Origin: a bacterium
GTDB lineage: Bacteria; Auribacterota; Erginobacteria; Erginobacterales; DAOSXE01
Direction of reading: 5' to 3'
DNA length: 64,000 nt
Assembly (NCBI GenBank): GCA_035380285.1
Contig: DAOSXE010000015.1
Location: 1,927-65,926 of the forward strand
A program made the position numbers and the translations under genes. Each line of letters starts with the position of its first letter. Position 1 is the stretch's first letter. Shown piece by piece: positions 2,743-58,030 of the stretch. The notes beneath the pieces were generated by a model. It was not told the origin of the DNA. It did not search any database and saw only the letters and a list, made by a program, of their open reading frames with translations.

Positions 2743-3492
2743 TCAGCCGAGCAGGAACCCGCCGGTGTAGCGGACCGACTTCGTGTCCTGAGAGGGCAGG
2801 TTCCAGTCCCGGATCCAGCGGATCGGGCGGGGGCCGCCGCCGCAGACGGGGAACGCGCCGGCGGCCGAACAGAGCGCGTCGACCCAGAAACCGCAGGCCT
2901 CGAGGGCGAACAGCCGCCGGAGGGGCCGACGGCACTCCTCTCCCTCGGCGCACCCCCGCGGACAGACCCGGCACGGCCCGCTGGCGTAGGCGGCGAGGAC
3001 GGCGAAACCTTCCCCGCGCAGGGCTTGCGCCGTCCGGGCGATGAAGGGATGGACCCGGTTCTGGGAGAGTTCGTCCTCGTCCGCTTCCAACTGGACGACG
3101 AGGAAACCGCGGGCGCGGGAGAGAAGCTCCCGCGTCGTTTCGACCGCGGGCGCGTAGGGCGGGCACCCCTTCCACCCCCTCAGGATACCGGGGCAGGAGG
3201 GAATCGTCCCCTCGGCCGTGCGGTAGGGGATGCGGCAGAACCGCTTCACCCGCTCGGCGACGACGGAGGACAGCGGAGGCATCAGCCCGGCCCGGAGAAC
3301 GCCGGGGGCCAGCGCCGGGTCGGCGGCGTGCCGTCGCTCCAGGAGGGCGCCCAGTGCCTCGGCGCGGCGGTCGTAGAAATCCGCGAAGTCCGCGGTGGCT
3401 CCGGCGGCGGAGACGGGGGCGAGCCGCCGGGATTGCCGGATGTATTCCCGCGCCGTGCCGATTTCTCGTCCTCCGTTGTCGGCGACGGGCAC
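2743..3492 (-). CDS. cysteine-rich predicted metal-binding protein (hypothetical)
   Basis: C-terminal ~240 aa of ORF 2743..4251 has protein-like composition with clustered Cys (CRVCPRGC, SCPG); upstream part of that ORF overlaps the next gene and looks like shadow frame; start (GTG) is a guess. Confidence 0.35.
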   Translation of the reverse strand: MPVADNGGREIGTAREYIRQSRRLAPVSAAGATADFADFYDRRAEALGALLERRHAADPALAPGVLRAGLMPPLSSVVAERVKRFCRIPYRTAEGTIPSCPGILRGWKGCPPYAPAVETTRELLSRARGFLVVQLEADEDELSQNRVHPFIARTAQALRGEGFAVLAAYASGPCRVCPRGCAEGEECRRPLRRLFALEACGFWVDALCSAAGAFPVCGGGPRPIRWIRDWNLPSQDTKSVRYTGGFLLG

Positions 3493-3500
3493 GGGCGCCT

Positions 3501-4532
3501 CTAGAAACGGACCCCGGCGAAGCCGGTCACGGTGTTCATCCGGAAGTCGAACGCCTTGTCGAACTTTTCCCGCAGCTCCTCGATTTCGTCCGGGTCGCGG
3601 TCCAGGGCGTTGACCTCGCCGTCCGTACGGAAGTGCAGGTACGCCCCTCCGAAGAACAGATCGACCGCCTCCGAAACCGGGAACTCGATCCGGGCGCTGA
3701 GGCGGTAGGTGTCGAAGTCGATGTCGAGGTCCTTTTCGTGGCGGGTCTTGACGGGGAAATGCTCGGTGGAGCCGTTGTAGGAGAAAAAACCGTAGCGACC
3801 GGAGAGGACCAGGCGCACGCCGTCGGCGGGGCCGAGGGTAAGGTCGCCGCCGGCCCCGAGCACCGGAAGACCGATCCCGCCCCAGCCGTCGGTCTGGCCG
3901 CCGATCACGTACTCCACCGGGGGCTCCTCGTAGACGGTGGTCCCCCGGGGGGGGCCGTCGTCGAGATCGTACTTGCCGAAAATGCCGATCAGCCCCAGGT
4001 AGATCCAGGGAACGAGCGCCACCGATTCCGCGGGTTCGAAGGTGAAGGGGGTGAAAGCAAGATCGATCTCGACCAAACCGGAATCGAGCGAGGCCGTGAA
4101 CTCGTCCCCTTCCGGAATCATCATGTGGTCGTAGCTCTTCCCCCGGTATTCGATGTCGTCGTCGATCCCGATGTAGTAATCGCGGTTGGCCACGGCATCG
4201 GCGTCGGTTCTGAAGTAGGAAGCCTCGAAACTGAGGGTGAAGTATTTCCATTCCTTCTCCACCGCGATGCCGAAGATGGGAACCCGGTCGTTGAGGCCGA
4301 GGTCGTCCAGGGAATACGTGGAACCCTCGCTCTCCCTTCCGATCAGCTCGTAGTACGGGCGGACGGTCTCGGTCACCTCTCCCTCCAGTTCGGAGACCAT
4401 TCCGCCCCCGACCGAAATCAGCCAGCCCCGATCGATCCCGTCGTCGCGGCCCCAGCGAAAAACCCCGGTCCCGGCCCGGGCGGAAGCGGCCCAGCAGCCG
4501 GCGAGGGCGACGGCGAAAAGCAATCTATTCAT
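3501..4532 (-). CDS. secreted hypothetical protein, possible outer-membrane beta-barrel
   Basis: N-terminal signal-peptide-like MNRLLFAVALAGCWAASARA, alternating hydrophobic pattern, C-terminal aromatic residue (ends ...GVRF). Confidence 0.5.
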   Translation of the reverse strand: MNRLLFAVALAGCWAASARAGTGVFRWGRDDGIDRGWLISVGGGMVSELEGEVTETVRPYYELIGRESEGSTYSLDDLGLNDRVPIFGIAVEKEWKYFTLSFEASYFRTDADAVANRDYYIGIDDDIEYRGKSYDHMMIPEGDEFTASLDSGLVEIDLAFTPFTFEPAESVALVPWIYLGLIGIFGKYDLDDGPPRGTTVYEEPPVEYVIGGQTDGWGGIGLPVLGAGGDLTLGPADGVRLVLSGRYGFFSYNGSTEHFPVKTRHEKDLDIDFDTYRLSARIEFPVSEAVDLFFGGAYLHFRTDGEVNALDRDPDEIEELREKFDKAFDFRMNTVTGFAGVRF

Positions 4533-5298
4533 CGGCGTTCTCCCGGTAGGTTTCCAACCGGTCCTCGCCGGGGAAAAATTCCAGGAGTTCGGGCCGGCCG
4601 TCCAGAAGCCGGATCAGCGTGTAGCGTTTGACCCAACAGCCGGTGTTGCCGTACGTCCCCTCCGGGAACGAGGACAGCTCCGGACAGTGGGTGTGCCCGA
4701 GAATAACCAGGTCGTCACCCTCCCGCAGATACTCCCGGGCGCGGACCCGGTAAGCGCCCAAAACCTCTTCGGTGGCCCGGGTAAGCTCGAACCGGCGGCT
4801 GCGGGCGGAGATAAACTCCCCCAACGGCACTCCGGCCGCCGGGGGGAGGAGCCGGTACAGCCGCTGGAGCGCCGGGTTGCGCAGGAGCCGATGGAGAAAA
4901 CGGCTGCCCCGGTCCCCGGGCCGGATCCCGTCGCCGTGCCTGACCCTCACGTTCCTCCCCTGGAGCTTTCCCCGGAACTCCCGGTCGTGGACGGTGACGC
5001 CCACGGTCTCGCTGACGAACGGCCCCAGGGCGAAATCGTGGTTGCCCTGACAGTAGTGGACCTCAACCCCGGCCTCGACCAGAGAGCGGAGGGCGTGGAG
5101 AGGACGGAAATAGTCGGGCCGGACGGCGTAACGGTATTCGATCCAGAAATCGAAGAGGTCGCCGACGATGAAGATCCGGGAGGCTCCCCCGCCCCACTTT
5201 CTCAGAAAGGACTCGAGGGCGGCGCCCCGGCCCTCGCCCCCCTCGATGCCGATGCCCAGGTGGGCGTCCGAAACGAAATAAATCGGCTTTGACGGCAC
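4525..5298 (-). CDS. LpxH-like calcineurin-type metallophosphoesterase (UDP-2,3-diacylglucosamine diphosphatase family)
   Basis: Metallophosphoesterase motifs in order: FVSDAHLG, GDLFDFW, GNHDF, HGD, GHTH. Confidence 0.6.
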   Translation of the reverse strand: MPSKPIYFVSDAHLGIGIEGGEGRGAALESFLRKWGGGASRIFIVGDLFDFWIEYRYAVRPDYFRPLHALRSLVEAGVEVHYCQGNHDFALGPFVSETVGVTVHDREFRGKLQGRNVRVRHGDGIRPGDRGSRFLHRLLRNPALQRLYRLLPPAAGVPLGEFISARSRRFELTRATEEVLGAYRVRAREYLREGDDLVILGHTHCPELSSFPEGTYGNTGCWVKRYTLIRLLDGRPELLEFFPGEDRLETYRENADE

Positions 5299-5397
5299 TG
5301 GTTCGTTCCCCGGCGTTGCCGATACCCGAAAACCGGACCATCCTGCCGGCCCGGCCTGTTATAACCATACCACAGATCGGACGGAAACGCAGGAGAC

Positions 5398-6210
5398 CTA
5401 CTTCAGGTAATAGAGCCGGGGGTTCTCCCCGATCCGCACGCTCAGTTCGATATAGGGCTTGATCGAACTCATGGCGATCTTCCCCATCAGAACCTCCTCC
5501 ACCTGGAAGATCCCGGTGGCGTCGCGCATGTCGATGGCGATTTCCAGGGGTTTGGTCTCTCCCCGCTTGAGCTCGACGCTGGTCACGCTCAGGGCCGAAT
5601 ACGCGTGGATATCCCCCACGGTGGGATCGTGCTTGCGCTTCACCGCCGCCCGGGCGCGGCCGTACTCCATGTCGCAGCCGTCGGATACCAGCATGATCCC
5701 GGATTCGATCGAGTTGACCTTCATGTGGGCCATGTGACCCATGATGCATTCGAAGATATAGGAACGCAGGATGTAGACCTTTCCCTCGTCCGGATAAATA
5801 TCCCGAAGCACTTCGAAGATGAACGGATCCCCGACGCGGGTGGAATTGATCTCGTGGTCCTGGCGCCCGATCGACATGCCCAGATCGTGAAGAAACGCCG
5901 AAACCGTCAGCACCACCTGGGCGTCCTCCACATCGCCCGAACCCTCCCTGACCACGGTGGGGTCGACCCCGGACTCGGCCAGAATGCCCACGATCTTGAG
6001 GGCGTTGAGGGTGGCGATCTTGGCGTGAACCCGGCCGTGGTCGTTGAACCCGTAGCGCTCGACCGAAACCACGTTGCAAAACCCCATCAGCCGCTCCAGC
6101 GCCTTCAGCGAGAGCAGGCGCTCCAGAGCGCGGCGGGCCTTCCCTTCCGATTTCTCCAACAGTTCGACGTCGAGCTTCTTCTCGAACTCGCTCTTCGCGT
6201 ATTCCGCCAT
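5398..6210 (-). CDS. HD-domain metal-dependent phosphohydrolase
   Basis: His...His-Asp pattern (GRVHAK ... AFLHDLGM) in 270-aa product. Confidence 0.55.
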   Translation of the reverse strand: MAEYAKSEFEKKLDVELLEKSEGKARRALERLLSLKALERLMGFCNVVSVERYGFNDHGRVHAKIATLNALKIVGILAESGVDPTVVREGSGDVEDAQVVLTVSAFLHDLGMSIGRQDHEINSTRVGDPFIFEVLRDIYPDEGKVYILRSYIFECIMGHMAHMKVNSIESGIMLVSDGCDMEYGRARAAVKRKHDPTVGDIHAYSALSVTSVELKRGETKPLEIAIDMRDATGIFQVEEVLMGKIAMSSIKPYIELSVRIGENPRLYYLK

Positions 6211-8925: not shown

Positions 8926-11019
8926 ATGACCAGAGAAATACCAATCGAAAAAGTCCGAAACATCGGGGTCATGGCCCACATCGACGCCGGGAAAACCACG
9001 GTGACGGAACGCATCCTTTTCTTCACCGGCCGCAGCCATAAGATCGGAGAGGTACACGACGGCGAAGCGACCATGGACTGGATGGTTCAGGAACAGGAAC
9101 GCGGGATCACCATCACCTCGGCGGCCACCACCGCCTTCTGGAAAGGCCATAGAATCAACATCATCGATACCCCGGGCCACGTCGACTTCACCGCGGAAGT
9201 CGAGCGTTCGCTCCGGGTCCTGGACGGGACCGTCGCTCTCTTCTGCGCGGTGGGCGGCGTCCAGCCCCAGTCGGAGACGGTATGGCGCCAGGCCGAGAAA
9301 TACATGGTCCCGCGTATCGCCTTCATCAACAAGATGGACCGGATCGGGGCCGATTTCGACGGCGTGGTGAAGGAAATCGAGGTGACCCTGGGGGCCAACC
9401 CGGTTCCGATCGTGATCCCGATCGGGGCGGGCGCGGAATTCGAAGGCGTCGTCGATCTGATCGAGATGAAGGCGATTTTCTACGACGAGGCGCCCGTCGG
9501 GGCGCGGATCCGGGAAGAAGCCGTTCCGGCCGAGCTCAGGGAAAGAGCGGAAGCCGCCCGGGAGTTTTTAGTCGAACGGGTCAGCGAACAGGACGACGCC
9601 CTCATGGAGAAATACGTGGGGGGACAGGAACCCTCCCGGGACGAACTGACGGCGGCCCTGCGCGGGGCCGTCATCCGCGGGGAGGTCATCCCGGTCCTCT
9701 GCGGCGCCGCGTTCAAGAATAAGGGCGTCCGCCGGCTGCTCGACGCCATCGTCGATCTTCTCCCCTCCCCCCTCGACCTGCCCCCGGCCATCGGCACCCG
9801 CAAGGAGGAGAACAAGGAGATCATCCGCCACCCTTCCGAGGACGCCCCGCTGGCCGCCCTGGCCTTCAAGATCATGGCCGACCGGCACCTGGGGAAACTG
9901 ACCTACCTGAGGGTCTACTCGGGGGTGCTCGCCAACGGGTCGTTCGTCTTCAACTCCAACCTGGAAACCAGGCAGCGGGTGGGGCGGATATTCCTCATGC
10001 ACGCCAACAAGCAGCAGGCGGTCGACAATTTGAGAGCCGGCGAGGTGGGGGCGGTGGTCGGCCTGGCCGAGACCAGGACCGGAGACACCGTCTGCGACGA
10101 GGCGCACCCCATCATCCTGGAAAATATCGATTTCCCCGCCCCGGTGATCGGGGTGGCCGTGGCCCCCGCCAGCCGGGCGGACCGGGATCGCCTGGCGGCG
10201 GCCCTGAGCCGCCTGGCCGACGAAGACCCCACCTTCACCGTCCGCACCGAAGAGGAGACGGGCGAAGTGATCATCTCGGGCATGGGCGAACTGCACCTCG
10301 AGGTCATCGTCGATCGGCTCAAGCGCGAATTCAACGTCGCGGTCGAAGTCGGGCAACCCCAGGTCGCCTACCGGGAGACGATCCTGGGGGATATCGAGCA
10401 CCGTTACCGCCACGTCAAGCAGACCGGAGGCCACGGCCAGTTCGCCGACATCATCTTCCGGATCGAGCCGGGCCAACCCGGCGAAGGCTTCCAGTTCTTC
10501 AACGAAATCCGGGGGGGGAACATACCCCGGGAATACATTCCTTCGATCGAACGCGGGGTGGTCGACGCCATGGCCCAGGGACCCTACGCCGGATTTCCCA
10601 TGGTCGACATCGTTTATACCGTCCTGGACGGATCGGCCCACGAAGTCGACTCCTCGGACATGGCCTTCCGCACCTGCGCCGCAGTCGGCTTCAAGGAAGC
10701 CTGCCGCAAGGCGGGCCTGCAGCTTCTGGAACCGATGATGAGCGTGGAGATCGTCACCCCCGAAGAATATATCGGCCCCCTGACCGGGAGCATCTGTTCC
10801 AAGCGGGGAAAGGTAACGAGCCTGATCCACAAGGCCACGCACTGCGTCCTCGCGGGCCAGGTGCCCCTGGCCAACATGTTCGGCTATTCCTCGGAACTGC
10901 GCACCATCACCAGCGGCCGCGGCGATTTTTCCATGCATTTCGAACACTACGCCGCCGTGCCCTTCTCCCTGGCGGAGGAGATCGTGGAACGACGGCGCCG
11001 GGAAGAGAAAATTCCCTGA
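8926..11019 (+). CDS. fusA: translation elongation factor G
   Basis: GTPase motifs [18 protein letters not shown] and full-length EF-G-like architecture (697 aa from internal ATG of ORF 8869..11019). Confidence 0.95.
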
Positions 11020-11088
11020 AGCGGCGGCCGCGAGGGGGCCCGGCGGAAAAAAACCGGCTCCCCGGGGGAGGGAACCGGTCGTGGAGCT
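10915..11088. repeat. 174-bp direct repeat, left copy (putative att site); spans last 105 nt of fusA plus 69 nt downstream
   Basis: Identical nucleotide-for-nucleotide to 21573-21746 (read directly). Confidence 0.9.
11047..11078 (-). terminator. duplicated copy of the tRNA-Ala intrinsic terminator inside the left repeat; positioned to terminate the island operon
   Basis: Same sequence as 21705-21736: on the minus strand an 8-bp stem (one G-U pair) followed by U7. Confidence 0.3.
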
Positions 11089-11281: not shown

Positions 11282-12310
11282 CTACGGCACCATCCTCGCG
11301 AAGTAAGGGTAGAGACGAGAGTACCGCTCGTAGTTGCTCATCTTGGCGATACTAACTTCCTCCGAGTCATCACCCTCAGTTAGATACCCTAGAGCGGTAA
11401 CACATACTGTCCCGTCTCCCGTTTCGGTCGGCAGAATTTCTTCGAGCTTCAGACGCTCCTTCGTGCTCAGCACCGGAACATCGATCTCATCGATCAAGCC
11501 CGAAGCAGTCACATAGAGGGGGCTCGTAGCCTTAAAGTGACCAAGCAACGCATCTCGGTTATTCTCCGGACAGAACACCCCTGTTATGCTTAACATAATT
11601 GTACCATCCGAGTACTTTGCCACCTGTAGCGGAAGAAAAGTCTTCGGCTTACTGCAAGCGCTCTCCAGAACCGATAGCACCATATGACTGAGCAACCATG
11701 GGAAGTTCTCCTCTTTGAAGTTCTCCCATGTGAACAGGTCATGGTCATAGGATACTTCTGCGACTGTCATGGCCTTCAGGTAATCATCTCGAAACTCATT
11801 GAAATCTTTCTTCTTGTAGGACGGAAGTATCTGCTGATGGCGCCGAAGCTTGACCTCCCTATATACCGGGGTCTCCGCCATGAGCGTTACCCGCAGCACA
11901 CTCCATTCAAGAGCCTGACGTGCGATACCGGACACTTCTGTCAACTCTTGTCGCCCAGCATCAACGTAATCCACCCACACAATCGTTGGTTTTTCGCTGG
12001 GAAACAGCGTTGACAGGAATTCCTCAAACCGACAGGACAGAAGTTTCACTTTTTTTGAACACTGGTGGAATTTCTGTCGCCTGTACGTCTCACCATCACT
12101 CTCAACCGACACCATGTCAAGGTTCGGGAACACGTTGCTCAGCAACCTGAAGTCTTCAAGAAACGGACCTCCAAACCCGATATACAAATGCTCTTTCAAG
12201 CTATGTGTGAGTTCAAACGTACGCAGCAACTCGACCAAGACCAAGCGATCAATAGCCTTGTTGGATCGCAAATGATATGCTGGATGTTTTGGTTTTCTGA
12301 GCCAGGTCAT
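11282..12310 (-). CDS. hypothetical protein, partner of the GHKL ATPase (4-nt overlap)
   Basis: 342-aa ORF with protein-like composition, last gene of the island gene array; no motif I can assign. Confidence 0.5.
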   Translation of the reverse strand: MTWLRKPKHPAYHLRSNKAIDRLVLVELLRTFELTHSLKEHLYIGFGGPFLEDFRLLSNVFPNLDMVSVESDGETYRRQKFHQCSKKVKLLSCRFEEFLSTLFPSEKPTIVWVDYVDAGRQELTEVSGIARQALEWSVLRVTLMAETPVYREVKLRRHQQILPSYKKKDFNEFRDDYLKAMTVAEVSYDHDLFTWENFKEENFPWLLSHMVLSVLESACSKPKTFLPLQVAKYSDGTIMLSITGVFCPENNRDALLGHFKATSPLYVTASGLIDEIDVPVLSTKERLKLEEILPTETGDGTVCVTALGYLTEGDDSEEVSIAKMSNYERYSRLYPYFARMVP

Positions 12311-13740
12311 TCCCTCGCCTCCTCAAGGATCACGTCAAAGCACCTCGCCCCAACATTGGATGGATTTCTGTCGGGGCTATCAAAGATGTACTGTGAAACA
12401 CGACGCACATCCCTGACAGCACGGGTAAAGACTATTCGCTCCGTCGTCTTCTTCTTGTCCGGTCGCGGTAACACAGGTTTGTACTGTTTGCCTTTCACGG
12501 CACCGCGCGTCGCAGTCATGTGCAATTTCAATGCTCGAGTTCGAATCTCGTCAAGCGTCGCTTTGTGTGTTGATCTCATCTCACATCGAGACTTGGCAAC
12601 GAGATCCTTACCTTTCCATTGGTTAGTGTACTGAGTGAACATCTTTGTTCCCTCAATCATCTTGTCACGCACCTGCAGGTAAAGAGGAGATGAGGCCTCG
12701 ATCCCTCTTTTGGTTGTCGTCATAGGCAAGAGATTCGCGTCATCCGCACTGAATATGACAATCCCCGATATCGCAATGAATTGCATGTGGTATTGCGGCA
12801 CTCCCGAAACTCCCCACCCAGTCAAAGGCGTCTTGTCACAGTAAACTACAGTTCGGTCGTTGCAGATCACAGTCCACCCGGCCTCTGCAGAAGAATACCG
12901 CTCCTTGTAGTTCTCAAGGCCTTCGTCTGCCTCCTCTCGGCTGGGGATCGGGCTCGTGAAACCCACAACAAGGAACACATCAACCCCATCGTGTTTCCCT
13001 TCGTAGATAAAGGGCATTATCGGGTGCTTCGATCTCACCGCTTCCTCCGCGAATAGCAGGCTTATGCTCCTAGGAGTTACCGCCTTTCCGTTGATACGGA
13101 CTTCAAACCCCTTGCCAATGATGTACGCATAGTGCGTCGCTACGGCCTCACGAAACGCTCTCTCAAAGGCTCCGGATTCGAATTCCGTACGCACGGATGA
13201 GTAAATACTTCTGATTTCAAGTGTGGTACCAAGAGTTTCTGCTGGCTTGATCGCGACTACGGGAATCAACCAGTCATCCTCTTTTGATATCCACTGCGGT
13301 GATAGCCGCAAACGGTAAGAACCGTCCTTCGCATGTGTTCTGATTGTGCAGTCCGCTCCCATCTTGAAGATGGCGCGCTTCATCCCAATTCCATACGTAC
13401 CGATGGTTTTTTTCCCCTTGTCTATGTCCGCTTTAATCCGTCCCATGCGAAAGGCGTAGTCATGGTATCTCACCGGTATCCCCCCACAGTTGTCTTCAAT
13501 CCTGAAGCGCGTCCCGTCAAACTCAATACTTGCCCAATATCCCTCGTATGGGAGACGCCTAGAAAGTTGCCGTTTCGTTTCAGCCCGCTGAATACCATCT
13601 ACACAGTTATCCAGCAGATCCAGGATCGCATCCTGAAGCTCGATGTCCCTTGTTAGCATATGTACGAAAAACGACTTGACCGGATTGGCCGGAATGTGTG
13701 GGATCTTCCTAAGATGCATCTGAGTAACCTCCTTATTCAA
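12307..13740 (-). CDS. MORC/MutL-like GHKL-superfamily ATPase (restriction/defence-associated type)
   Basis: Bergerat-fold motifs: N-box LDLLDNCVDG, G1 box EDNCGGIP, G2 box GTYGIGMKRAIF in the N-terminal ~200 aa; ~270 aa C-terminal region unassigned. Confidence 0.7.
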   Translation of the reverse strand: MNKEVTQMHLRKIPHIPANPVKSFFVHMLTRDIELQDAILDLLDNCVDGIQRAETKRQLSRRLPYEGYWASIEFDGTRFRIEDNCGGIPVRYHDYAFRMGRIKADIDKGKKTIGTYGIGMKRAIFKMGADCTIRTHAKDGSYRLRLSPQWISKEDDWLIPVVAIKPAETLGTTLEIRSIYSSVRTEFESGAFERAFREAVATHYAYIIGKGFEVRINGKAVTPRSISLLFAEEAVRSKHPIMPFIYEGKHDGVDVFLVVGFTSPIPSREEADEGLENYKERYSSAEAGWTVICNDRTVVYCDKTPLTGWGVSGVPQYHMQFIAISGIVIFSADDANLLPMTTTKRGIEASSPLYLQVRDKMIEGTKMFTQYTNQWKGKDLVAKSRCEMRSTHKATLDEIRTRALKLHMTATRGAVKGKQYKPVLPRPDKKKTTERIVFTRAVRDVRRVSQYIFDSPDRNPSNVGARCFDVILEEARE

Positions 13741-14914
13741 TAAACTCCTTCATGCGACTAAGTACGCTTTCTGCCAGAATCGGGCTGATGCTATTCCCGA
13801 TCTGTCTAAAGCTGTGCCACTTCGTCGAGTCGAACTGGAACCAGTCGGGGAAGCCCTGCAACCGGGCCGCTTCCCGGGGAGTAATGACGCGCGGCTCTGT
13901 GGGGTGAATTGGCCGAAGGGCTTGGTAGCTTCCATGCTCCGGGTCTGAGCCCGATCTTAGAGTCGGACAGAACCCCTTCCGTGCCAAACGCACAGCTCGC
14001 GAAGGCCCGTCAATGGCTCCCTCCGCCAGCTTGGCGAATCTCTCCAGAACGGTTTTCGTATGCCGTGTACCAAGACAGCCTGAAACGCGGTTCTCGTCTT
14101 GCAAGCGCCTAATCGCCTCCAGATCGCCAACACCCTCTGGTATCTTGTCGCGAATCCTTTCCCAAAACGGGCCGCTGTTGTGAGGCGTTACTGTGCGCCA
14201 ACTCTGGGCTTCTTGCTGCCACTCAGGACTGATCTTCTGGCGAAGACCTAGAAGTGCCGTCCCAACGTTGACTTTCGCGACGTTGGCAGGGGGCGCAAAA
14301 CAATCCTTCGTCAACCCGTTCGCACGCCCCACAACAATACCAATAAAGAACACTCGTTCTCGACTTGTTGCCGCGCCGAAATCCGATGCTTTGAGAATAA
14401 TAGGACCGAGGTTTATGTAGTTAGCCACTCTGGCCAACGCATTCGCGCGAACTTCGTCGAATTGAGAGTCCCGTATGCCTAGCACGTTCTCAGCAATGTA
14501 AAACGTGGGTTGAAGCTCCGCCACCAACCGAAAGAAGTGGTCGAACAGGTTGTTGCGCGCGTCATTTGGTTTGCGGCGACCGATTCGACTAAAACCCTGG
14601 CATGGCGGTCCACCGATAACCCCATCAATTCCGTTGATGTCGATTTGGGCCTTCTCAATAAGTTCTGCGCCTGTGAGTTCAGCAATGTTTGCATCAACGT
14701 ATTCGTATTTAGGGAAGTTCTTCTTGAAAGCGGATTTGGCTTGGGCATTGTTATCCACGGCTGCGGCAATCTGGAAGCCTGCGCGCGCTGCACCGAGAGT
14801 CAACCCTCCCACACCGCAGAACAAGTCAATGACCGTCGGCATACCTTCTGTTCCCTTCGCCGTTTTTCTGTTACCCGTGAAGCTCAGATCCGTCTCTATT
14901 CTTAACTGTATCAA
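13733..14914 (-). CDS. dcm: DNA (cytosine-5)-methyltransferase
   Basis: Motif I DLFCGVGG, motif IV catalytic PPCQGFS, ENV motif, C-terminal QIGNSIS. Confidence 0.9.
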   Translation of the reverse strand: MIQLRIETDLSFTGNRKTAKGTEGMPTVIDLFCGVGGLTLGAARAGFQIAAAVDNNAQAKSAFKKNFPKYEYVDANIAELTGAELIEKAQIDINGIDGVIGGPPCQGFSRIGRRKPNDARNNLFDHFFRLVAELQPTFYIAENVLGIRDSQFDEVRANALARVANYINLGPIILKASDFGAATSRERVFFIGIVVGRANGLTKDCFAPPANVAKVNVGTALLGLRQKISPEWQQEAQSWRTVTPHNSGPFWERIRDKIPEGVGDLEAIRRLQDENRVSGCLGTRHTKTVLERFAKLAEGAIDGPSRAVRLARKGFCPTLRSGSDPEHGSYQALRPIHPTEPRVITPREAARLQGFPDWFQFDSTKWHSFRQIGNSISPILAESVLSRMKEFIE

Positions 14915-15313
14915 TCACAGGCACTCCTCAAATCCATCTTCTGAAAGAATCGCTAGCCTTCCCCCTCTGCGAATCCAAGTGGCTATTCTCTTCACATCTC
15001 GGCCTTCACCAAACGCTGGGGTGCGCCTCCGAACGGCGCATTCCCAAATCACGAGAACACGCCAGCCCATATCTAGCAGTTTGCCTCGCACGCACAAATC
15101 TCGCAATCTGTTGCGTTTAATCTTCTTATTCCAAAACTGCTGATTGCTCTTTGCCTTCGGCCTTCGACCACATTCATGCCCATGCCAGTAGCATCCGTGG
15201 ACGAACACAACAGTCTTATGCCCGGCTAGAACAATGTCAGGTCGGCCCGGTAGATTCCTGGCGTGTAACCGATACCTAAAGCCTTCTCCAAACAGCGTCC
15301 TACGCACCTCCAT
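14915..15313 (-). CDS. vsr: very short patch repair endonuclease
   Basis: LPGRPDIV, FVHGCYWHGHEC and GWRVLVIWECA motifs; lies immediately 5-prime of dcm on the same strand with no gap. Confidence 0.85.
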   Translation of the reverse strand: MEVRRTLFGEGFRYRLHARNLPGRPDIVLAGHKTVVFVHGCYWHGHECGRRPKAKSNQQFWNKKIKRNRLRDLCVRGKLLDMGWRVLVIWECAVRRRTPAFGEGRDVKRIATWIRRGGRLAILSEDGFEECL

Positions 15314-15386
15314 TTCCGGGCCTGTGTTTTTCCCCGATTCGCAGCCATGATCTTGTGCCGAGTCTCAGCATTTACTCGGTCCACCA

Positions 15387-15653
15387 TCAAGACTTCCCTG
15401 CCCTTTTGTCCCGTTGATGCACTTTGTTATGACAAACGATGCACAATGTCTTCAGGTTCCCTTCAATATTTACGCTGCCCTTCACGTGATGCTCGATGTG
15501 ATGCAACTCCAAGTGTCGCGGATCGAACGGGTTCCATTCGTCGTGCGCCCACGCGCAAAACCGGCACTTGTCCCCGTCGCGCCGAAGCAACGGAAGCAAG
15601 CCGAACACACAGTTCAATCGCTTGTCCGACATAGAGATGTGGGGCGACCGCAA
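15387..15653 (-). CDS. small HNH endonuclease
   Basis: CRFC ... HHIEHHVKGSVNIEGNLKTLCIVCHNKVH (HNH motif with flanking Cys pairs); 5-prime end overlaps the end of the preceding gene so true start may be the internal Met (MSDKRL). Confidence 0.6.
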   Translation of the reverse strand: MRSPHISMSDKRLNCVFGLLPLLRRDGDKCRFCAWAHDEWNPFDPRHLELHHIEHHVKGSVNIEGNLKTLCIVCHNKVHQRDKRAGKS

Positions 15654-16720
15654 CCTGCAATCTCACCAACCGCCTGACCGACAACAGCGTATGTGTCATA
15701 GCTCGGTATCCGGAGCATTGGACCGGTGAAAGACGCACAAAGAAGAGGTACTCGTTCGCGTAGATGTGCAGACCCCAAATCTCCTCCGCCAATCTTCACA
15801 CCATGGTCAGCCACTACGAACACCCAATCGCCAGAACGAAGAAAATCCAAGAATGACTGTAGAAAAGCGTCAAACCGCTCAAGGGTTCGCCAGCACGCCG
15901 ATGCATCTCCCATGTGGGCATAACGGTCAAAATCCTCCAGATTGACCATGATAAATGCCTCGTCCTCCGCCGCTGTAACCTCTGCATTCAACAGCTCAAA
16001 GCACTGCTCGTCTCGCTCAGTTCGTACTGCCATATTCGCTGGCAAGGATAGGATTTCCTGCACCTTGCCGTTGACTATCCGTCTCCATCCAAGCGGCACG
16101 AATTTCTGCAGCAGAGACTCTCCATCGATCATCTGAAAGAAGTCACGCCGTAGTTCTTCAACCGGTTCTCCGCCACGCAACGGTCTTGCAAGCACCTTCT
16201 TCACGCATAACTCCGCTGATGCATCCAACATGCAGCGGAGTGCCTGTGCGACTTTATATAGACACTCACGGGGCACGACAATTTCATCTGCACTCACGAC
16301 CACAGTGCTGTCGAGCCCCCTATAGAGCATTATTGCCCCAGTTTGCAAATGTTCGAGCCACAACTCCGGGAGAACATCCCTGCCCCTTCCCTGTTTGTTG
16401 CCAATCAACTTAACTCCACAATTATTGCCAAGCTTCATCAGAACATCACGCGGTAGCGGTTCCGAGGGTATAGGGTGAGGTTGTTTAGTTATCCATCCGA
16501 ACATCTCGCGATGTCCTTCCTCCGATCCCACCGCGACTGACGCTTGTCTCATCACATGTCCACGACCCGTGACCGCAGCATCCAATCCCATATTAAAAAG
16601 GACTGGAAGAACGGAGATTTTGCGGCCGTACTGTTCGCACAGAGTCCCTAGGGTGCTGGTCTCACCGCCGTCAGGAGCAACTCCAAAACCATCTACAACG
16701 ATCACAAAAACGCGCGACAT
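15614..16720 (-). CDS. phosphopentomutase-like metalloenzyme (alkaline phosphatase superfamily)
   Basis: N-terminal FVIVVDGFG, central NLEDFD, C-terminal VVADHG ... HLRERVPLL, matching the DeoB-type motif order. Confidence 0.7.
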   Translation of the reverse strand: MSRVFVIVVDGFGVAPDGGETSTLGTLCEQYGRKISVLPVLFNMGLDAAVTGRGHVMRQASVAVGSEEGHREMFGWITKQPHPIPSEPLPRDVLMKLGNNCGVKLIGNKQGRGRDVLPELWLEHLQTGAIMLYRGLDSTVVVSADEIVVPRECLYKVAQALRCMLDASAELCVKKVLARPLRGGEPVEELRRDFFQMIDGESLLQKFVPLGWRRIVNGKVQEILSLPANMAVRTERDEQCFELLNAEVTAAEDEAFIMVNLEDFDRYAHMGDASACWRTLERFDAFLQSFLDFLRSGDWVFVVADHGVKIGGGDLGSAHLRERVPLLCASFTGPMLRIPSYDTYAVVGQAVGEIAGCGRPTSLCRTSD

Positions 16721-18534
16721 CAGGATTCAAATTTTCTGATTCGCAGGTTAACGAATTCAACAACTTTCCGCCAAAGACTGGCGATTGAAACTTTGCTGCC
16801 AAGCGAGAGTTCTCCTTCATACTGAAGAAGAAGAGGAATGATCGGTATAGTTACCTTTAGCTTGTCCGTAACAGAAATATCAGACTTCAGCACAGTGGAA
16901 GTAACGGAGACCCGTTCTGCGACCTTAGGCAAAATGGCTGAAGATTTTATGGTGTCACAGAGCGTCGCTAACACCTCTCTGGATTCTTCAAGCAGCGCTT
17001 TCATCTCCTCTGTTTCAGGCTCATGGTCCATCGCTGAGACGAATGACTCGACAACAACATCCCGGGCCGTTCTCGCCTCTGATACCGCCTCTGTAGCAGC
17101 GATCTTCCCTGCCATCTGAAGTTGTTCGTATTCCATGACAGACGCGACGACTCTGCCCCGTATCTCTAGGATATCTTCCTCAAGCCGCTGGATGCTTTTG
17201 GGTCGGTCCTCGACTCTCAGGGTATCTTCAGTGCGTTTGAGAAGGACGAAGTCCTTGCGTAGATTATCCCGAATATCTTCCAGCCTCTGTTTCTCTACCG
17301 GTATCCCGTTAGCCACTGTTTCGTCCTTCCTCTCTTCACAGGATCTGGGAACGCCGACGATTCTCCTCACATCGGTCAGAATATCCTTTGGGGCCGATGC
17401 CTCGGAGACAGCGCCAAGAATATGCACCAATGCTGTCACGCTCGAACGTATCCGCTCTGGGTCCGAAAGCAACCCGCGTCCCATTTGAATCATCACGTCC
17501 GCACCAAATGTCTCAACGTTCTGAAATATTTCTTCGAGGAAAATACTTCCCGAAGAAACAGCGAAGCATGGTCTGAGACCATACTGATCGCCCTGTAGCT
17601 TTTCGATTTCCTCCTTCAATATTGCTTGCTCATACGGAAAATCCTGGGTGAACGGCCCTGTGTAGACAGCATCTCCACCTGCAAGTCGCGAAAGTAGGGC
17701 AATTACCTGCTCCGCTAGGTAGTGCGTGCTCTTGCGCGTCAATACACCCCGGCCGATGTTGTTCACAACGAATGCTGTCTGACCATCACACGTATCGATC
17801 ACATGCCTGACAGCCGAAAAACCCATCGCGATACAGTTGAGGGTAAAACCACAAACGCCATGGCGCTGTCCATCCTCGACCAAGCGCAAGGATGTCTCCA
17901 CATCTGCGGTTGCATTCATGAAGTAGCCCAACTTGCGCCCCGTTTTCTCTTGGGCTGCAGTAACTACGGTTTCAATGGCCTGTGCGCGTTGTCCAAATGG
18001 ACTACAACTTGGGGACACGAGCAACTCGTCGTCAATCACGTAGTCAACACCACCCTCCAATGCTCTTTGCACTGTTGGGAGAATATCAGATAGACTCATG
18101 CGCAACCGCGGTTTCAGGATGAGCCCCAGAAGCGGCCGTTGGGAAACACCAAGAAGCTTCCTAATCCCTGATACACCATACCTTGGCCCCTTGTATTCAT
18201 CGAGGCAAACTTTGGGCAATGCCAGATCCACCACGGCAAATCGCTTCAGCGCTGAAAAGACAGAGCAATAGCACACACTCCCTAGGAGCATGGCGAGACC
18301 CGTACCAAGTCCAGCAGAACAAGGCGGCAGGGACAAAAGCACTTCAAGCTCGTTCTTGGATTGATCAATCTCACGAACATCGAGAATCTCTGGGTCTTCG
18401 TGAAATTCACAAGGCTCATCGGTACGTCGCAGCGGAATCGTTCCGGTGCTGCCTAGATCCATCGCAGCGAGGAGTTGCTTCAGCCCCTTCTCACGGTTTT
18501 CTAGGATCATGTGAAGTGTTACAGTTGCATGCAT
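16720..18534 (-). CDS. RuBisCO large-subunit-like protein (RLP) with Lys-to-Ile at the carbamylation position and a ~200-aa C-terminal extension
   Basis: [29 protein letters not shown] parallels the RuBisCO [30 protein letters not shown] signature; [10 protein letters not shown] aligns to [18 protein letters not shown] parallels GHYLNATA; C-terminal region is charged and coiled-coil-like. Confidence 0.7.
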   Translation of the reverse strand: [604 protein letters not shown]

Positions 18535-18543
18535 AATCGATCC

Positions 18544-19113
18544 TTAGTGCTTAACGTCAATGACTTTGCCATCTACAAGAAAGGTTCCGCTCGTCAAGTG
18601 GTACACCTGCGGTATTGCACTTCTCAGTTTTATCTTATCCTCTGAGAACAATTCTTTATCGATATCTGCTGCAACGACCAATCCAACAACAACGTGGTGG
18701 TTTCCTGCCTCCTTGTGCCATTGCAGCTTACATTCCAGATTGACTGCACATTCTGCTATCCGCGCGGGCTTCACCTTGTTCCTCGCATATGGTGTCAATC
18801 CCGTTTCCTCAAACTCATCCACGGCCGGCGGATACTCGTTAGCAGCCTGGTAAAGTTGAGTCAGAATCTTGCTCGTAGGAATTCCTACCACAAACTCGCC
18901 GGTCTTTGAGATATTCTTGAAGGTGTCAGACTTTGGCGAGATACCAAGCGCAACCATCGGGGGGCACGTCGAACACGGCGTGAACATAGCGTAGGGTGCC
19001 AAGTTCTTAACCCCCGCTGTGTCGACCGTTGACACGAGTACAACAGGGGACGGCTGAACCAAGTAGACAACTTTTGCAACTTTGTCTAAGACCTCGATCT
19101 TCTGATACTTCAT
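18544..19113 (-). CDS. flavin reductase-like (FMN-binding split-barrel) protein
   Basis: VVLVSTVD...NLAPYAMFTPCS..PPMVALGI...DTFKNISKTGEFVVGIP pattern typical of flavin reductase family. Confidence 0.7.
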   Translation of the reverse strand: MKYQKIEVLDKVAKVVYLVQPSPVVLVSTVDTAGVKNLAPYAMFTPCSTCPPMVALGISPKSDTFKNISKTGEFVVGIPTSKILTQLYQAANEYPPAVDEFEETGLTPYARNKVKPARIAECAVNLECKLQWHKEAGNHHVVVGLVVAADIDKELFSEDKIKLRSAIPQVYHLTSGTFLVDGKVIDVKH

Positions 19114-21059
19114 CTTGTATCTCCTCTCATCTGATCTACCATTTCAACCAAATCCGCAAAAACAAGGTCTGGCCGGGAATCATGCGTGCGTCGAGCCACA
19201 TCTTCAGCAGTACTTATCCCTCCAAGAACAAGGCAAGCCAACGCTCCAGCCTTTCTGGCTGCTGCTATGTCAGTATCGAGCGAATCCCCAATTACGGCTA
19301 CCTCTTGCGGTTTCATACCCATAAGATGAAGTAGAAGGCGAAGCGAGAAGTCATTTGGTTTCCCCACGACAAAGGGCGATTTGCCAGTTACTGTTTCAAT
19401 TGCAGCCACAATCCAGCCAGTTCCGGGCTTGTCCATACCCGGAGCAGCGAACACACGATCCCGGTCCGTGCATACGAACTCCGCACCCTTCAAAATTGCT
19501 CGCTGGGCTGCCACTAGGTCGGCATATATGAAATCCTTTGAATAGCCAACGACAACTGCGTCAATGTAACCAGTGTGATCATTGGCGGCGATATCCATGC
19601 CACCGCAGGCGAGCAACTCAGGTAGTGCTGGTGCTCCACCCAGCACCAAGCAACACCTGTATCCCTTAGTGCGGCAATACTCGGCAGCGGCAATAGTGGA
19701 CGTCATGATATGCCGCGGGTCCGCTATCACGGCCATCTGGCCGAGTTTGTCTGCTAACTCCTGCTGCCTTCTTACGCTCGTGTTTGTCAAGAAGCCAACT
19801 GTAACGCCAGATTGTCGCAAAATGCGAATGGCCGCGAGGCTGGCTTCTATCGGCTTGTCTCCTTTATAGAGAACACCGTCGAGATCCAGCACAACTCCCC
19901 GTTTTGAAGCCAGATCCCGCAGCTTATCCGTGGACTTTACTGGCACCCTCGGATGGCGTGGCTCGCGTGGGCGTGAACATTGGATCGTATAGAGCGACCT
20001 CACGGCGGTATTCCAGGATAGCTTGTACTCTTCATGGCCGCGCATGAAATCAACTTCCTGTAGCCCGTTATCGCAAGCCCATCGAATCGCTTCACCCAAT
20101 AGCACTAGCCCCGGAGAACAATCGTCTAACGCCAAATCAAAGGATGTGTTCCAGTCATAGTATCTGCCACCACGGATGAAGCCCATCCGATAAGCAACTA
20201 TGTTGCCGTTCAGAAGCAGATGAAAAAGACAGAAATTCCCGGTTCCGGCGAAATCTTTCGCAACGTCATGAATGAAGCCTCTGCGCCTTGTGTCGGCAAA
20301 TGCTTGGACTCCGTGAATACTGTCCCAACGAGTATCATGGAGATCAAATAGACGTTCGAGGGTTTCATGGTCGTAATCCCGGACAACTTGGAGTTCTACC
20401 TTGCCGCGGCGGCGCAGAGCCCGCATCTTGCGGTTCAGCATTCGCCGCCGGTTTCTTGTCCGTGACTTAAGATACTTATCCCAAGAACAACCAAGTTCTA
20501 TATACGGCGCATCCTCTGCCCTGACAATAACCGGTGATAGACCGCAATCTTGAAGTGCACGTGTTACAATGTGCAAGGTGACGTCATCTTGCCGTATGTT
20601 TTGTAGCCTTATTTCATCCCATTCCAAATGGTCGCACATCGCGGCTGCGATGCGGTCGATAGGATCACATGCAAAGGCCGAGAAGACTCCGCCTAGGTAG
20701 TCACTACAACAATCAGAAAGAAGCGTAAGGATCGTATGGGATCCTACGCGTTTGCGCATCAGAGGCAGAATGGCAAGAACGTCATCTCCCAGCGCGGCCC
20801 AGAAGATGGACAATTCCCTGTCAGAACCGAAGTGGCCCCACCAGTACGAAAGCCAACGTGGATCAACCGAGACTGGAAGGTTAGGCTGTTTTTCAAGGAT
20901 CTTAACCCAGTGAGGGTAGATTGCGGACCACTCCTCATTGCTCCTCACAACACCGACCTGGGCCCTACGATAGTCGCGTTCCGTCGACATGTAGTTACGC
21001 AGGGAATATTGCCAACTTGTCTGTGATGCATCCAGCCAGCTATCGCTGCACATCATCAC
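19110..21059 (-). CDS. fusion protein: large N-terminal FemAB/CelD-like acyltransferase-type domain (tentative) plus C-terminal HAD-IIA phosphatase domain
   Basis: C-terminal HAD motifs in order (VVLDLDGVLY, FLTNTS, GKP, IGDSLDTDI) are clear; N-terminal ~370 aa Trp-rich domain assigned by resemblance only. Confidence 0.65.
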   Translation of the reverse strand: MMMCSDSWLDASQTSWQYSLRNYMSTERDYRRAQVGVVRSNEEWSAIYPHWVKILEKQPNLPVSVDPRWLSYWWGHFGSDRELSIFWAALGDDVLAILPLMRKRVGSHTILTLLSDCCSDYLGGVFSAFACDPIDRIAAAMCDHLEWDEIRLQNIRQDDVTLHIVTRALQDCGLSPVIVRAEDAPYIELGCSWDKYLKSRTRNRRRMLNRKMRALRRRGKVELQVVRDYDHETLERLFDLHDTRWDSIHGVQAFADTRRRGFIHDVAKDFAGTGNFCLFHLLLNGNIVAYRMGFIRGGRYYDWNTSFDLALDDCSPGLVLLGEAIRWACDNGLQEVDFMRGHEEYKLSWNTAVRSLYTIQCSRPREPRHPRVPVKSTDKLRDLASKRGVVLDLDGVLYKGDKPIEASLAAIRILRQSGVTVGFLTNTSVRRQQELADKLGQMAVIADPRHIMTSTIAAAEYCRTKGYRCCLVLGGAPALPELLACGGMDIAANDHTGYIDAVVVGYSKDFIYADLVAAQRAILKGAEFVCTDRDRVFAAPGMDKPGTGWIVAAIETVTGKSPFVVGKPNDFSLRLLLHLMGMKPQEVAVIGDSLDTDIAAARKAGALACLVLGGISTAEDVARRTHDSRPDLVFADLVEMVDQMRGDTR

Positions 21060-21572
21060 TCCTGTTACTTGCTTTTTTCTTCCCGGGCGGCGAGATTCTC
21101 CTCAATCATGCGTGACACAATCCAAGAGAGCGAACGCTCCTCTTTCTCCGTCAACTCTTCCAAGATTTCTTAGACTTGCGGGGTAACTCGGACGCTCAGG
21201 AGTTTTATTTTCAGTTCAACCTTGTGCCTTTTCGTAGGGTGTACGACGTCATGCATTTGCATGCTGATTTTAATAATATATGATGTGTATGCTGTGTGAT
21301 GATAGTAGAAAGAAGAAGGATCCGATAAACTGCTTTCTGTATGCCCATTAGTCGATTGATTAGTCCACCCGTCAGATGCTATAAATTGAGGCGCAGGTCA
21401 CGGGACTTTTGGAGTATGCCCAGAAGGAACGTCTGCATCGTGGAGAAGTTTACGGAATTCATGACAGCATGGAAACCGGGCTGACCGGTTTTCAATGCAA
21501 TGATGGATCGGGGAGTCAAATGCGCTGCTCGCGTGGCTCCCTGACCGCTTCGGGCGTAACCCACTCGGCGGG

Positions 21573-21677
21573 GGCCGCGGCGATTTTTCCATGCATTTCG
21601 AACACTACGCCGCCGTGCCCTTCTCCCTGGCGGAGGAGATCGTGGAACGACGGCGCCGGGAAGAGAAAATTCCCTGA
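21573..21677 (+). pseudogene. duplicated 3-prime fragment of fusA (last 34 codons plus stop) created by the repeat; not an independent gene
   Basis: Sequence identical to fusA 10915-11019 but lacks the upstream ~2 kb of the gene. Confidence 0.7.
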
Positions 21678-21704
21678 AGCGGCGGCCGCGAGGGGGCCCG
21701 GCGG

Positions 21705-21736
21705 AAAAAAACCGGCTCCCCGGGGGAGGGAACCGG
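21705..21736 (-). terminator. intrinsic terminator directly downstream of tRNA-Ala
   Basis: On minus strand: ccgguucc / ggagccgg stem (8 bp, one G-U) with 9-nt loop followed by U7, beginning 4 nt after the tRNA 3-prime end. Confidence 0.5.
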
Positions 21737-21739
21737 TCG

Positions 21740-21812
21740 TGGAGCTGAGGGGATTCGAACCCCTGACCCCATGGCTGCCAGCCATGTGCTCTCCCAGCTG
21801 AGCTACAGCCCC
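21740..21812 (-). tRNA. tRNA-Ala (anticodon GGC)
   Basis: Reverse complement folds as cloverleaf: acceptor GGGGCTG/CAGCTCC with G3-U70 alanine identity pair, D-arm GCTC/GAGC, anticodon loop CTGGCAG, T-arm AGGGG-TTCGAAT-CCCCT; CCA not encoded. Confidence 0.9.
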
Positions 21813-57932: not shown

Positions 57933-57954
57933 CCGCTACGGCTGCAGAAGGGTA

Positions 57955-57987
57955 CGCCCGGGCGGCCGCAGCCGGGCCGCCCGGGCG
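57955..57987 (-). terminator. 13-bp GC-rich hairpin between the two histone-like genes
   Basis: cgcccgggcggcc / ggccgcccgggcg with 7-nt loop, downstream of the stop at 58031. Confidence 0.25.
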
Positions 57988-58030
57988 TTGACCCGCGCCC
58001 GGCGGGCGCGGGAACTGTGCGTACTCGGTG

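Follow-up and report, generated by a model that had tools for sequence, protein, structure and literature searches.

We analysed a 64,000-nucleotide stretch of bacterial DNA (the window; contig DAOSXE010000015.1 of assembly GCA_035380285.1) in which nine genes stand in a row on the minus strand between positions 11282 and 21059. These genes are the cargo of one recently inserted 10.66-kb island. The four genes at the 5' end, here termed cassette A, encode a fusion of a GNAT acyltransferase with a HAD phosphatase (GNAT-HAD), a flavin reductase-like protein, a RuBisCO-like protein (RLP) and a phosphopentomutase-like protein (PPM). The other five, here termed module B, encode a small HNH nuclease, a Vsr endonuclease, the cytosine DNA methyltransferase Dcm, a GHKL/MORC-like ATPase and a member of protein family PF20553. 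On balance, we lean towards an explanation in which these are two autonomous modules on one imported island, where module B is of the MORC type and cassette A is an undescribed conflict module that would act on pentose phosphates derived from nucleotides or NAD.

Two modules on one island

One genome from each of 100,044 species was scanned for PF20553, and 80 loci were returned. Up to 10 kb was fetched on each side, and all open reading frames (ORFs) of these loci were searched with the nine proteins of the window's island. The loci are spread over many phyla, with representatives in Omnitrophota, Planctomycetota, Nitrospirota, Chloroflexota, cyanobacteria, Pseudomonas, Enterobacter, Pasteurella and others. 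A homologue of the GHKL ATPase is present in every one of them, and in 78 it is located directly upstream of the PF20553 gene on the same strand. Homologues of Dcm are found in 61 of the loci, of Vsr in 32 and of the HNH nuclease in just one. There are no homologues of GNAT-HAD, the flavin reductase-like protein, the RLP or PPM in any of the 80. The nearest relative of module B (61% identity, locus L109) has the arrangement Vsr-Dcm-GHKL-PF20553 with a SIR2-like gene nearby; it has no further genes in common with the window and cassette A is absent.

There are six other contexts in which cassette A recurs with the same gene order and orientation, and none of the six includes a gene from module B. 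Its closest relative, a full cassette at L007-9, has an RLP that is 58% identical to that of the window. Four more distant loci also have the full cassette, with RLP identities of 38% (L012), 35% (L099, where the RLP carries a TIR insertion), 33% (L098) and 32% (L013). The sixth context (L010/L011; 46%) is cut by a contig end, such that only the genes for the flavin reductase-like protein, the RLP and PPM are visible.

Because each half recurs elsewhere without the other, the nine-gene array is a juxtaposition of two autonomous modules that are joined only in this island. The earlier note on this DNA had presented the two halves as a candidate single system and proposed a search for the same gene order in unrelated genomes; the halves do recur, but separately and never together, an outcome that the note itself had named as counting against a single system. 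Its suggestion that unrelated metabolic cargo happens to share an operon with a restriction-like module comes closest to describing the pairing, except that the 'metabolic' half does not amount to a standard salvage route. That such a tempting nine-gene 'operon' proves to be a juxtaposition is a useful caution for the mining of defence islands.

The island is 10,658 bp long and forms a sharp-edged trough of 51.5% GC (approximately 11 kb), while the flanks and the genome are at 66% GC. It is located between fusA and a tRNA-Ala(GGC) gene (21739-21812, minus strand), which marks the site of integration. A perfect 174-bp direct repeat forms its boundaries, with a left copy at 10915-11088 and a right copy at 21573-21746 that are 100% identical and spaced by 10,658 bp. 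The left copy includes the 3' end of fusA, a terminator-bearing spacer and 8 nt whose counterpart in the right copy (21739-21746) is the 3' end of the tRNA-Ala gene. Of the features expected of a tRNA-targeting integrative island, the tRNA and the perfect repeats are present, whereas no integrase is encoded. The same array is present in six independent assemblies. In two independent assemblies (L005 and L006) there are circular-like contigs with a period of 10,658 bp and terminal overlaps of 123 and 30 nt, respectively, which may represent an excised circle or may merely be an assembly-graph cycle created by the repeats.

The positions and strand reported in the earlier note for the nine ORFs were confirmed, and its domain assignments were upheld by searches of Pfam, NCBIfam and PADLOC. 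The genes are tightly packed, as it had described. There is a 4-nt overlap between the GNAT-HAD and flavin reductase-like genes, a 9-nt gap before the RLP gene, a 1-nt overlap between the RLP and PPM genes and an overlap of 19-40 nt between the PPM and HNH genes. Within module B, the Vsr and Dcm genes abut (0-nt gap), the Dcm and GHKL genes overlap by 8 nt (or are separated by 13 nt if the start preferred by the gene caller is used), and the GHKL and PF20553 genes overlap by 4 nt. The one sizeable gap, of 73 nt between the HNH and Vsr genes, is not genuine and results from a -1 frameshift in the latter. Since the two modules have the same GC content and abut without a spacer, they have travelled together.

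A strong terminator-like hairpin with a 12-bp stem and a T-run is located within the left repeat (11052-11080, minus strand), some 200 nucleotides downstream of the last island gene, and no other convincing terminator is present on the coding strand of the array. Because this sole convincing terminator stands after the last gene, it is plausible from the sequence that the nine genes are co-transcribed as one long transcript. With the exception of this repeat-borne terminator, the counts from promoter and terminator scans are not above those for shuffled sequences, and a single transcript is neither proved nor disproved by them.

Upstream of the array, a degenerate ORF for a CopG-type ribbon-helix-helix (RHH) protein (21065-21262, minus strand; RHH_1, E 6e-6, 26.4 bits against a cutoff of 20.5) is interrupted by an in-frame TAA and ends 5 nt before the GNAT-HAD start. 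It is probably a decayed regulator. We rejected the possibility that it is a conserved upstream regulator, because it is specific to this island and other cassettes are preceded by unrelated small ORFs. At L013 and L098, a common small hydrophobic peptide of approximately 35 residues is encoded upstream of the cassette, where the window has the RHH ORF.

Cassette A proteins and their relatives

The GNAT-HAD protein (19110-21059, minus strand; 647-649 aa) joins an Acetyltransf_6 domain, which is a GNAT domain of the FemAB/CelD type, to a HAD-IIA phosphatase. It scores 125.9 bits against TIGR01460 (cutoff 100.15), which places it in HAD-IIA, and HAD motifs I-IV (DLDGV, TNTS, GKP and GDSLDTD) are intact. 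The best PDB matches of the HAD domain belong to the Pho2/NagD family, and the best NCBIfam match is the TK1734 2-phosphoglycolate phosphatase family. This fusion occurs only in cassette A loci. The flavin reductase-like protein (18544-19113, minus strand; 189 aa; Flavin_Reduct) is a split-barrel protein that resembles the FMN-binding protein 1EJE, and its gene is found immediately upstream of the RLP gene in every cassette A locus and also at L014, L102 and L105, where the RLP is of a short type.

The RLP (16720-18534, minus strand; 604 aa) matches RuBisCO_large over residues 121-377 (PF00016, E 2.7e-24, 86.4 bits against a cutoff of 30.1), and it is therefore a member of the RuBisCO-like, or 'form IV', proteins. 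However, it falls below the equivalog cutoff of every characterised RLP, with 105 of 409 bits for MtnW and 92 of 700 for OiaX. Its barrel is closest to archaeal form III RuBisCO, at 140.7 bits against the TIGR03326 cutoff of 497.

The active site of the RLP was read by alignment to the RuBisCO of T. kodakarensis. Bona fide RuBisCOs of forms I-III are defined by a carbamylatable Lys201 in a KDDE motif together with H294, R295, H327 and K334. In the window's protein K175 is kept and K177 is replaced by arginine. The position of the carbamylated K201 is occupied by isoleucine (I167), although D203 and E204 are kept. H294 and R295 are both replaced by asparagine (N258 and N259), H327 by tyrosine (Y291), and the loop that includes the K334 region is deleted. 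The phosphate-site motifs SSG and QMGxG are retained. Loss of these five residues excludes carboxylation, and the alignment led us to reject both a bona fide carboxylase and a member of the archaeal AMP pathway. The replacements are invariant across the family (KPR, IDDEL, NNIGRG and GxDAVYTGP, with SSG also invariant), and for this reason the RLP is likely to be an active enzyme that carries out a different reaction rather than a decaying one. Beyond the barrel there is a helical C-terminal extension of approximately 220 aa with the conserved tail KLKxTIPIIPLLLxY.

PPM (15614-16720, minus strand; 368 aa; Pfam Metalloenzyme) belongs to the alkaline phosphatase superfamily. It matches PRK05362 with 146 bits, while the DeoB equivalog cutoff is 256. 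The protein aligns over its full length with the PPM of B. cereus, and the DHG, HxRE and DFD metal motifs are kept, with serine in place of the threonine nucleophile. Judged by the invariant motifs of the RLP, the metal ligands of PPM and the intact HAD motifs, the cassette A enzymes look active.

Cassette A is extremely rare. There are only 13 homologues of the RLP (E<=1e-5) among 5.8 billion proteins, and an exhaustive profile search of 1.84 billion cluster representatives recovered ten full-length clusters (562-608 aa). Approximately 180 RLP representatives had E<1e-30 in this search. Wherever its flanks are visible, the cassette sits in defence or mobile DNA. The neighbours at L007-9 are a Type III methyltransferase (PADLOC, 4e-228), a Type III restriction endonuclease, a DUF262/HEC-05 (GmrSD_N) protein and Cas10, and those at L010 are HerA and DruA (5e-179). 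HD-CE phosphohydrolase proteins are encoded beside the cassettes at L013 and L099, the latter fused to a GHKL domain; a literature search on HD-CE returned only unrelated matches. L098 is on a plasmid backbone with ParA, a resolvase and G39P, and in the window the cassette adjoins module B. At L099, a PDDEXK_2 protein and a trio of ThyA-like, radical-SAM and UDG-SocA proteins are also encoded near the cassette.

Two lineages of the RLP clade are fused to TIR domains. In the cassette at L099 (RLP gene at 3360-5648; 762 aa), a TIR_2 domain (E 9e-32; residues 419-540) is inserted between the barrel and the conserved tail, and its catalytic glutamate aligns with that of AbTIR-type NADases. The insertion is absent from P0143, a close relative of this protein. 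The other fusion is found in P0232, a less closely related RLP, again without K201, whose TIR_2 domain is N-terminal. Its operon (L103, 1873-5180; L104, 262-4964) encodes the TIR_2-RLP protein, then a His_Phos_1 phosphatase or mutase and a DUF4062-NACHT-TPR STAND NTPase. The arrangement resembles an immune locus of the NLR type with an RLP among its components, and a HIRAN/SymE-like gene is present upstream.

Short RLPs of the same clade (approximately 430 aa) are encoded directly downstream of an FMN-binding split-barrel protein (Flavin_Reduct/PNPOx) at L014, L102, L105 and L107. In three of these variant operons (L014, 2908-7467; L105, 2-4557; L107, 1705-5446), the short RLP gene precedes one for a protein of 113-131 aa whose termini are hydrophobic, and a protein of approximately 500 aa with a CxxC...CxxC pattern is encoded nearby. 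L014 and L105 are on integrase- or TraG-bearing elements and also have Tmk-like kinases, an upstream HAD gene and a NUDIX gene nearby. Homology was sought by BLAST between the C-terminal extension of the cassette RLP and the small proteins that follow the short RLPs, and between the CxxC proteins and the GNAT or PPM proteins; none was found in either case. The fourth short-RLP locus, L102, belongs to a distant relative whose neighbours are an amidase and an S-adenosylmethionine (SAM) methyltransferase. There are also two K201-less RLPs, P0189 and P0194, with N-terminal extensions of approximately 260-320 aa that have no Pfam match. These may constitute another fusion class; the related P0011 is annotated as a 'transcriptional regulator'.

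Possible functions of cassette A

The TIR and NACHT fusions and neighbours, together with the defence and mobile contexts, lead us to place cassette A in conflict. We propose that it is a self-contained, rare and mobile module for conflict between genomes, directed against phages or plasmids. The partners that recur with these RLPs are pentose-phosphate mutases or phosphatases (PPM, His_Phos_1 and HAD), an FMN protein, nucleotide kinases, NUDIX proteins and TIR NADases. Because of these partners, the substrate of the RLP is suggested to be a phosphorylated pentose or keto-pentose that originates from nucleotides or from ADP-ribose released by TIR domains. A defence based on a small molecule derived from pentose phosphate was among the hypotheses of the earlier note; it is the best reading for the four-gene half by itself, but not for all nine genes.

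Beyond the observed anatomy, module independence, conservation, contexts and domain fusions, we infer the substrates, products, trigger and defence phenotype of cassette A. Perhaps PPM interconverts the 5- and 1-phosphates of pentoses freed from nucleotides or from NAD-derived ADP-ribose, after which the flavoprotein would carry out flavin-dependent redox chemistry on a phospho-keto-sugar. The non-carboxylating RLP, which retains K175, the D203/E204 metal pair and one phosphate site, might then enolise or isomerise this sugar. Finally, the HAD phosphatase and the GNAT domain could finish the product by dephosphorylation or acylation. One possible outcome is the irreversible drain of a pool that an invader needs, which would counter the NAD+-reconstitution pathways of phages. 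Alternatively, an inhibitory small molecule might be produced. The C-terminal extension of the RLP, which is the site of the TIR insertion in one lineage, could serve as a regulatory or effector-docking arm.

A broader version of this idea, which we hold more tentatively and with somewhat less than even confidence, is that a K201-less branch of the RuBisCO superfamily has been recruited to prokaryotic immunity. With an FMN protein and mutases or phosphatases of phospho-sugars as partners, members of this branch would process pentose phosphates derived from NAD+ or nucleotides, such as ribose phosphate set free by TIR NADases. This could yield an antiviral metabolite, or create an irreversible sink that blocks the rebuilding of NAD+ or nucleotides by a phage. 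The cassette in the window would then be a TIR-less, island-borne form of the pathway.

Several known systems share components with cassette A. The archaeal pentose-bisphosphate pathway for degradation of nucleoside monophosphates such as AMP is similar in that the RLP barrel most resembles form III RuBisCO, and in that cassette A includes a PPM-like enzyme for nucleoside pentoses and a HAD-IIA phosphatase like the TK1734 family. However, the cassette A RLP has lost K201, H294, R295, H327 and K334. The cassette also lacks AMP phosphorylase and ribose-1,5-bisphosphate (R15P) isomerase, has a flavoprotein, a GNAT domain and the 220-aa extension of its RLP in addition, and is borne on mobile or defence islands. 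The nearest chemical precedent is the MtnW/MtnX pair of methionine salvage, where an RLP and a HAD-type phosphatase act on a phospho-keto-pentose. In contrast to MtnW, the cassette A RLP has lost the metal-binding lysine and scores only 105 of the 409 bits required, and the cassette has no MtnK, MtnA, MtnB or MtnD and a different genomic context.

Immune systems that use TIR domains (Thoeris and AbTIR-type NADases) are comparable in that RLPs of the cassette A clade are fused to TIR_2 domains with the catalytic glutamate, one TIR-RLP adjoins a NACHT-TPR protein, and cassette A is found in defence islands. Metabolite-based defences such as viperins and the depletion of NAD+ or nucleotides likewise employ a few metabolic enzymes that act on nucleotide-derived molecules. 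The differences are that ThsA/ThsB, SLOG, Macro and viperin components are missing and that the window's cassette has no TIR. Indeed, Pfam reveals no TIR domain in the window and PADLOC no match to ThsA or ThsB, and a RuBisCO-superfamily protein is not described for TIR or metabolite defence systems in the searchable literature.

The impression in the earlier note that no described system is involved agrees with these comparisons. None of the four cassette A proteins has a match in PADLOC-DB v2 at E<=0.01, and we therefore rejected the assignment of cassette A to a known defence system. Literature searches returned no description of cassette A, of an RLP in a defence context or of an RLP-TIR fusion, though such absence is not proof. 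In our assessment, cassette A belongs to no kind of system described so far, since it lacks the defining features of each one compared.

Should cassette A indeed serve in defence or conflict, this would be the first immune role for a RuBisCO-family protein, and metabolite-based immunity would gain a new type whose components are pentose-phosphate enzymes. The cassette might be linked to the arms race over NAD+ and ADP-ribose, in which TIR and SIR2 NADases of the host are pitted against the NAD-reconstitution pathways of phages. It would also provide a biological setting for an uncharacterised RLP clade with a distinctive and strictly conserved active site. With only four small genes, the further catalytic scope of the RuBisCO fold is directly testable.

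A number of observations count against a conflict module that is autonomous from module B. The defence role is assigned through guilt by association, from about six contexts and two fusion lineages, and most members of the cassette have no recognisable effector or sensor domain. Insertion of TIR into the cassette RLP is seen in one lineage only, and the window's own cassette is not of this kind. The distant relative at L102, with its amidase and SAM methyltransferase, has the appearance of ordinary small-molecule metabolism. With a frameshifted Vsr gene and a broken RHH ORF upstream, the island may be in partial decay. The modules, having travelled together, could cooperate in this one island. 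An AlphaFold model of the RLP, built from 10 sequences, is poor (predicted local distance difference test score, pLDDT, 63.8), and the pocket is not interpretable for this reason. No relative of cassette A was found on the viral contigs scanned, which speaks against viral carriage but is otherwise neutral.

The strongest competitor, to which we give a lower but still substantial weight, is that cassette A has no immune role but is cargo for metabolism or biosynthesis, such as a new RLP-based route for pentose-phosphate salvage or catabolism, or a secondary-metabolite pathway, that rides on islands and plasmids. In its favour, each of the four proteins is an enzyme whose catalytic motifs are intact, and the combination of an RLP with a HAD phosphatase follows the logic of MtnW and MtnX in methionine salvage, although the NCBIfam matches to MtnW are weak. 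The surroundings at L102 would fit such a pathway, as would the simple plasmid location of L098 and the lack of a visible sensor or effector domain in the window's version. Against it, TIR domains have been fused twice independently to RLPs of this clade, which also includes one with a NACHT-TPR neighbour, and the cassette is repeatedly sited among bona fide defence genes. There is also no kinase, isomerase or transporter as expected for a salvage route, and extreme rarity, patchiness and strict gene order are the pattern of mobile conflict cassettes rather than of housekeeping salvage.

It is far less probable that cassette A makes a precursor for hypermodification of DNA or nucleotides that protects the DNA of its own element. 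This would explain why genes of the restriction-modification type adjoin the cassette in the window and at L007-9, and it is compatible with the ThyA-like, radical-SAM and UDG-SocA genes near the L099 cassette and with the Tmk-like kinases near the short-RLP variants. Yet DNA glycosylases, transglycosylases, DNA-binding proteins and enzymes of nucleotidyl transfer are all absent from the conserved cassette, the restriction systems beside it are different ones in each context, and the links to TIR and NACHT indicate immunity rather than self-marking. No specific support was obtained for the DNA hypermodification pathway that the earlier note had suggested.

Least probable of all, and largely refuted by the context data, is one integrated system of nine genes in which the sugar-phosphate enzymes supply a small molecule or DNA modification that is used or sensed by the Dcm/Vsr/HNH/GHKL part; co-directional genes, the PPM/HNH overlap by which the two halves meet without a spacer, the presence of just one terminator, downstream of the ninth gene, identical GC in both halves and the movement of the whole array as one island all favour it, but we rejected it because the halves are never together elsewhere (0/80 module B loci and 0/6 other cassette A contexts), either half is missing from the nearest relative of the other, and the sole gene at the junction, HNH, is present in just 1/80 module B loci.

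Module B and other features

Independently of the conflict role that we favour for cassette A, module B can be assigned to a recognised kind. Its invariant core is the GHKL ATPase and the PF20553 protein, usually accompanied by Dcm. The 342-aa product of the last gene (11282-12310, minus strand), which had been called unknown in the earlier note, is a strong member of PF20553 (Methyltransf_35; E 2e-53, 181.9 bits against a cutoff of 27). It is predicted to have a class I SAM-methyltransferase fold, as its AlphaFold (AF2) model has a pLDDT of 87.5 and Foldseek matches it to SAM methyltransferases. With the GHKL gene immediately upstream, as in 78 of the 80 surveyed loci, this protein is an obligate partner of the ATPase. 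The GHKL/MORC-like ATPase itself (12307-13740, minus strand; 470-477 aa) is recognised by Pfam as HATPase_c_3, and Bergerat motifs (LLDNCVD, DNCGG and GTYGIG) are visible in its sequence. Neither protein of this core has a PADLOC match. A literature search on Methyltransf_35 returned nothing relevant, and no experimental characterisation of the core was found.

Dcm (13733-14914, minus strand; 393 aa) is a C5 cytosine DNA methyltransferase (PADLOC MTase_II, 2.7e-89; TIGR00675, 144.9 bits against a cutoff of 100.65) with PCQ and ENV motifs. The small HNH nuclease (15387-15653, minus strand; 81-88 aa) has intact motifs, and its gene overlaps both neighbours, namely the PPM gene at its 3' end and the Vsr gene at its ancestral start. 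Given its occurrence at a single surveyed locus, HNH is an accessory gene of module B.

The Vsr gene (14915-15387, minus strand) carries the -1 frameshift, which is located in a GGGGAAAAAC run near 15327-15335. The ORF as called (14915-15313; 132 aa) lacks the conserved N-terminal 20-25 residues or so, and the profile is matched only from position 26-28 (TIGR00632, 110.3 bits against a cutoff of 97.85). The missing codons (MVDRVNAETRHKIMAANRGK) are in another frame, starting at 15387 with a 1-nt overlap with the HNH stop. When reconstructed, the 157-aa protein aligns from end to end without gaps to the Vsr of L017 (62% identity). Because the frameshifted sequence is identical in the six independent assemblies, it is a real mutation and not a sequencing error, and the gene appears to be a pseudogene or to encode a truncated Vsr.

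Iyer, Abhiman and Aravind (2008; PMC2292703) described prokaryotic MORC and paraMORC ATPases whose neighbours are cytosine methylases, Vsr and HNH endonucleases, and interpreted these neighbourhoods as restriction-modification systems. Module B has the same combination of a GHKL ATPase with a cytosine methylase, Vsr and HNH, and it shares with these systems and with Mza (MutL-Z1-AIPR-Dcm) the property of being laterally mobile and integrated at hotspots. It differs from both in that the obligate partner of its ATPase is the PF20553 protein and not a helicase, Z1/AIPR or a nuclease of the restriction-endonuclease fold. Identification as Mza was rejected because the island scores 15.5 bits against the MzaB model (cutoff 850) and has no Z1 or AIPR domain according to Pfam. 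The V. cholerae WASA paper concerns GHKL systems other than module B. Judging by its gene content, module B is thus a widespread module of the known, predicted MORC/paraMORC restriction-modification kind. Dcm would mark self DNA, Vsr would repair the T:G mismatches that arise from Dcm methylation, and the ATPase and PF20553 pair might be an ATP-driven component that reads DNA or the Dcm mark. What emerges is Dcm-GHKL-PF20553, a core of three genes that is widespread but experimentally untouched.

Two variants of this core were observed among the 80 loci. In many of them, a second and more distant GHKL ATPase (E 1e-17 to 1e-40) adjoins Dcm, and the two-ATPase arrangement of Dcm-GHKL2 plus GHKL-PF20553 is seen at L037, L047, L059, L060, L065, L069 and L074. 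There are also cyanobacterial loci (L050, L053, L056, L062, L064, L067, L071 and L075) with the GHKL-PF20553 pair and no detectable Dcm or Vsr within 10 kb or less on each side, where the pair may work alone or with another methylase.

Elsewhere in the window and unrelated to the island, tandem repeats of 15, 30 and 45 nt of the GCGGCCTTCTTCGGG type are present at 57632-58299. Their product, if read from the minus strand, would be a Lys/Ala-rich repeat like that of histone H1.

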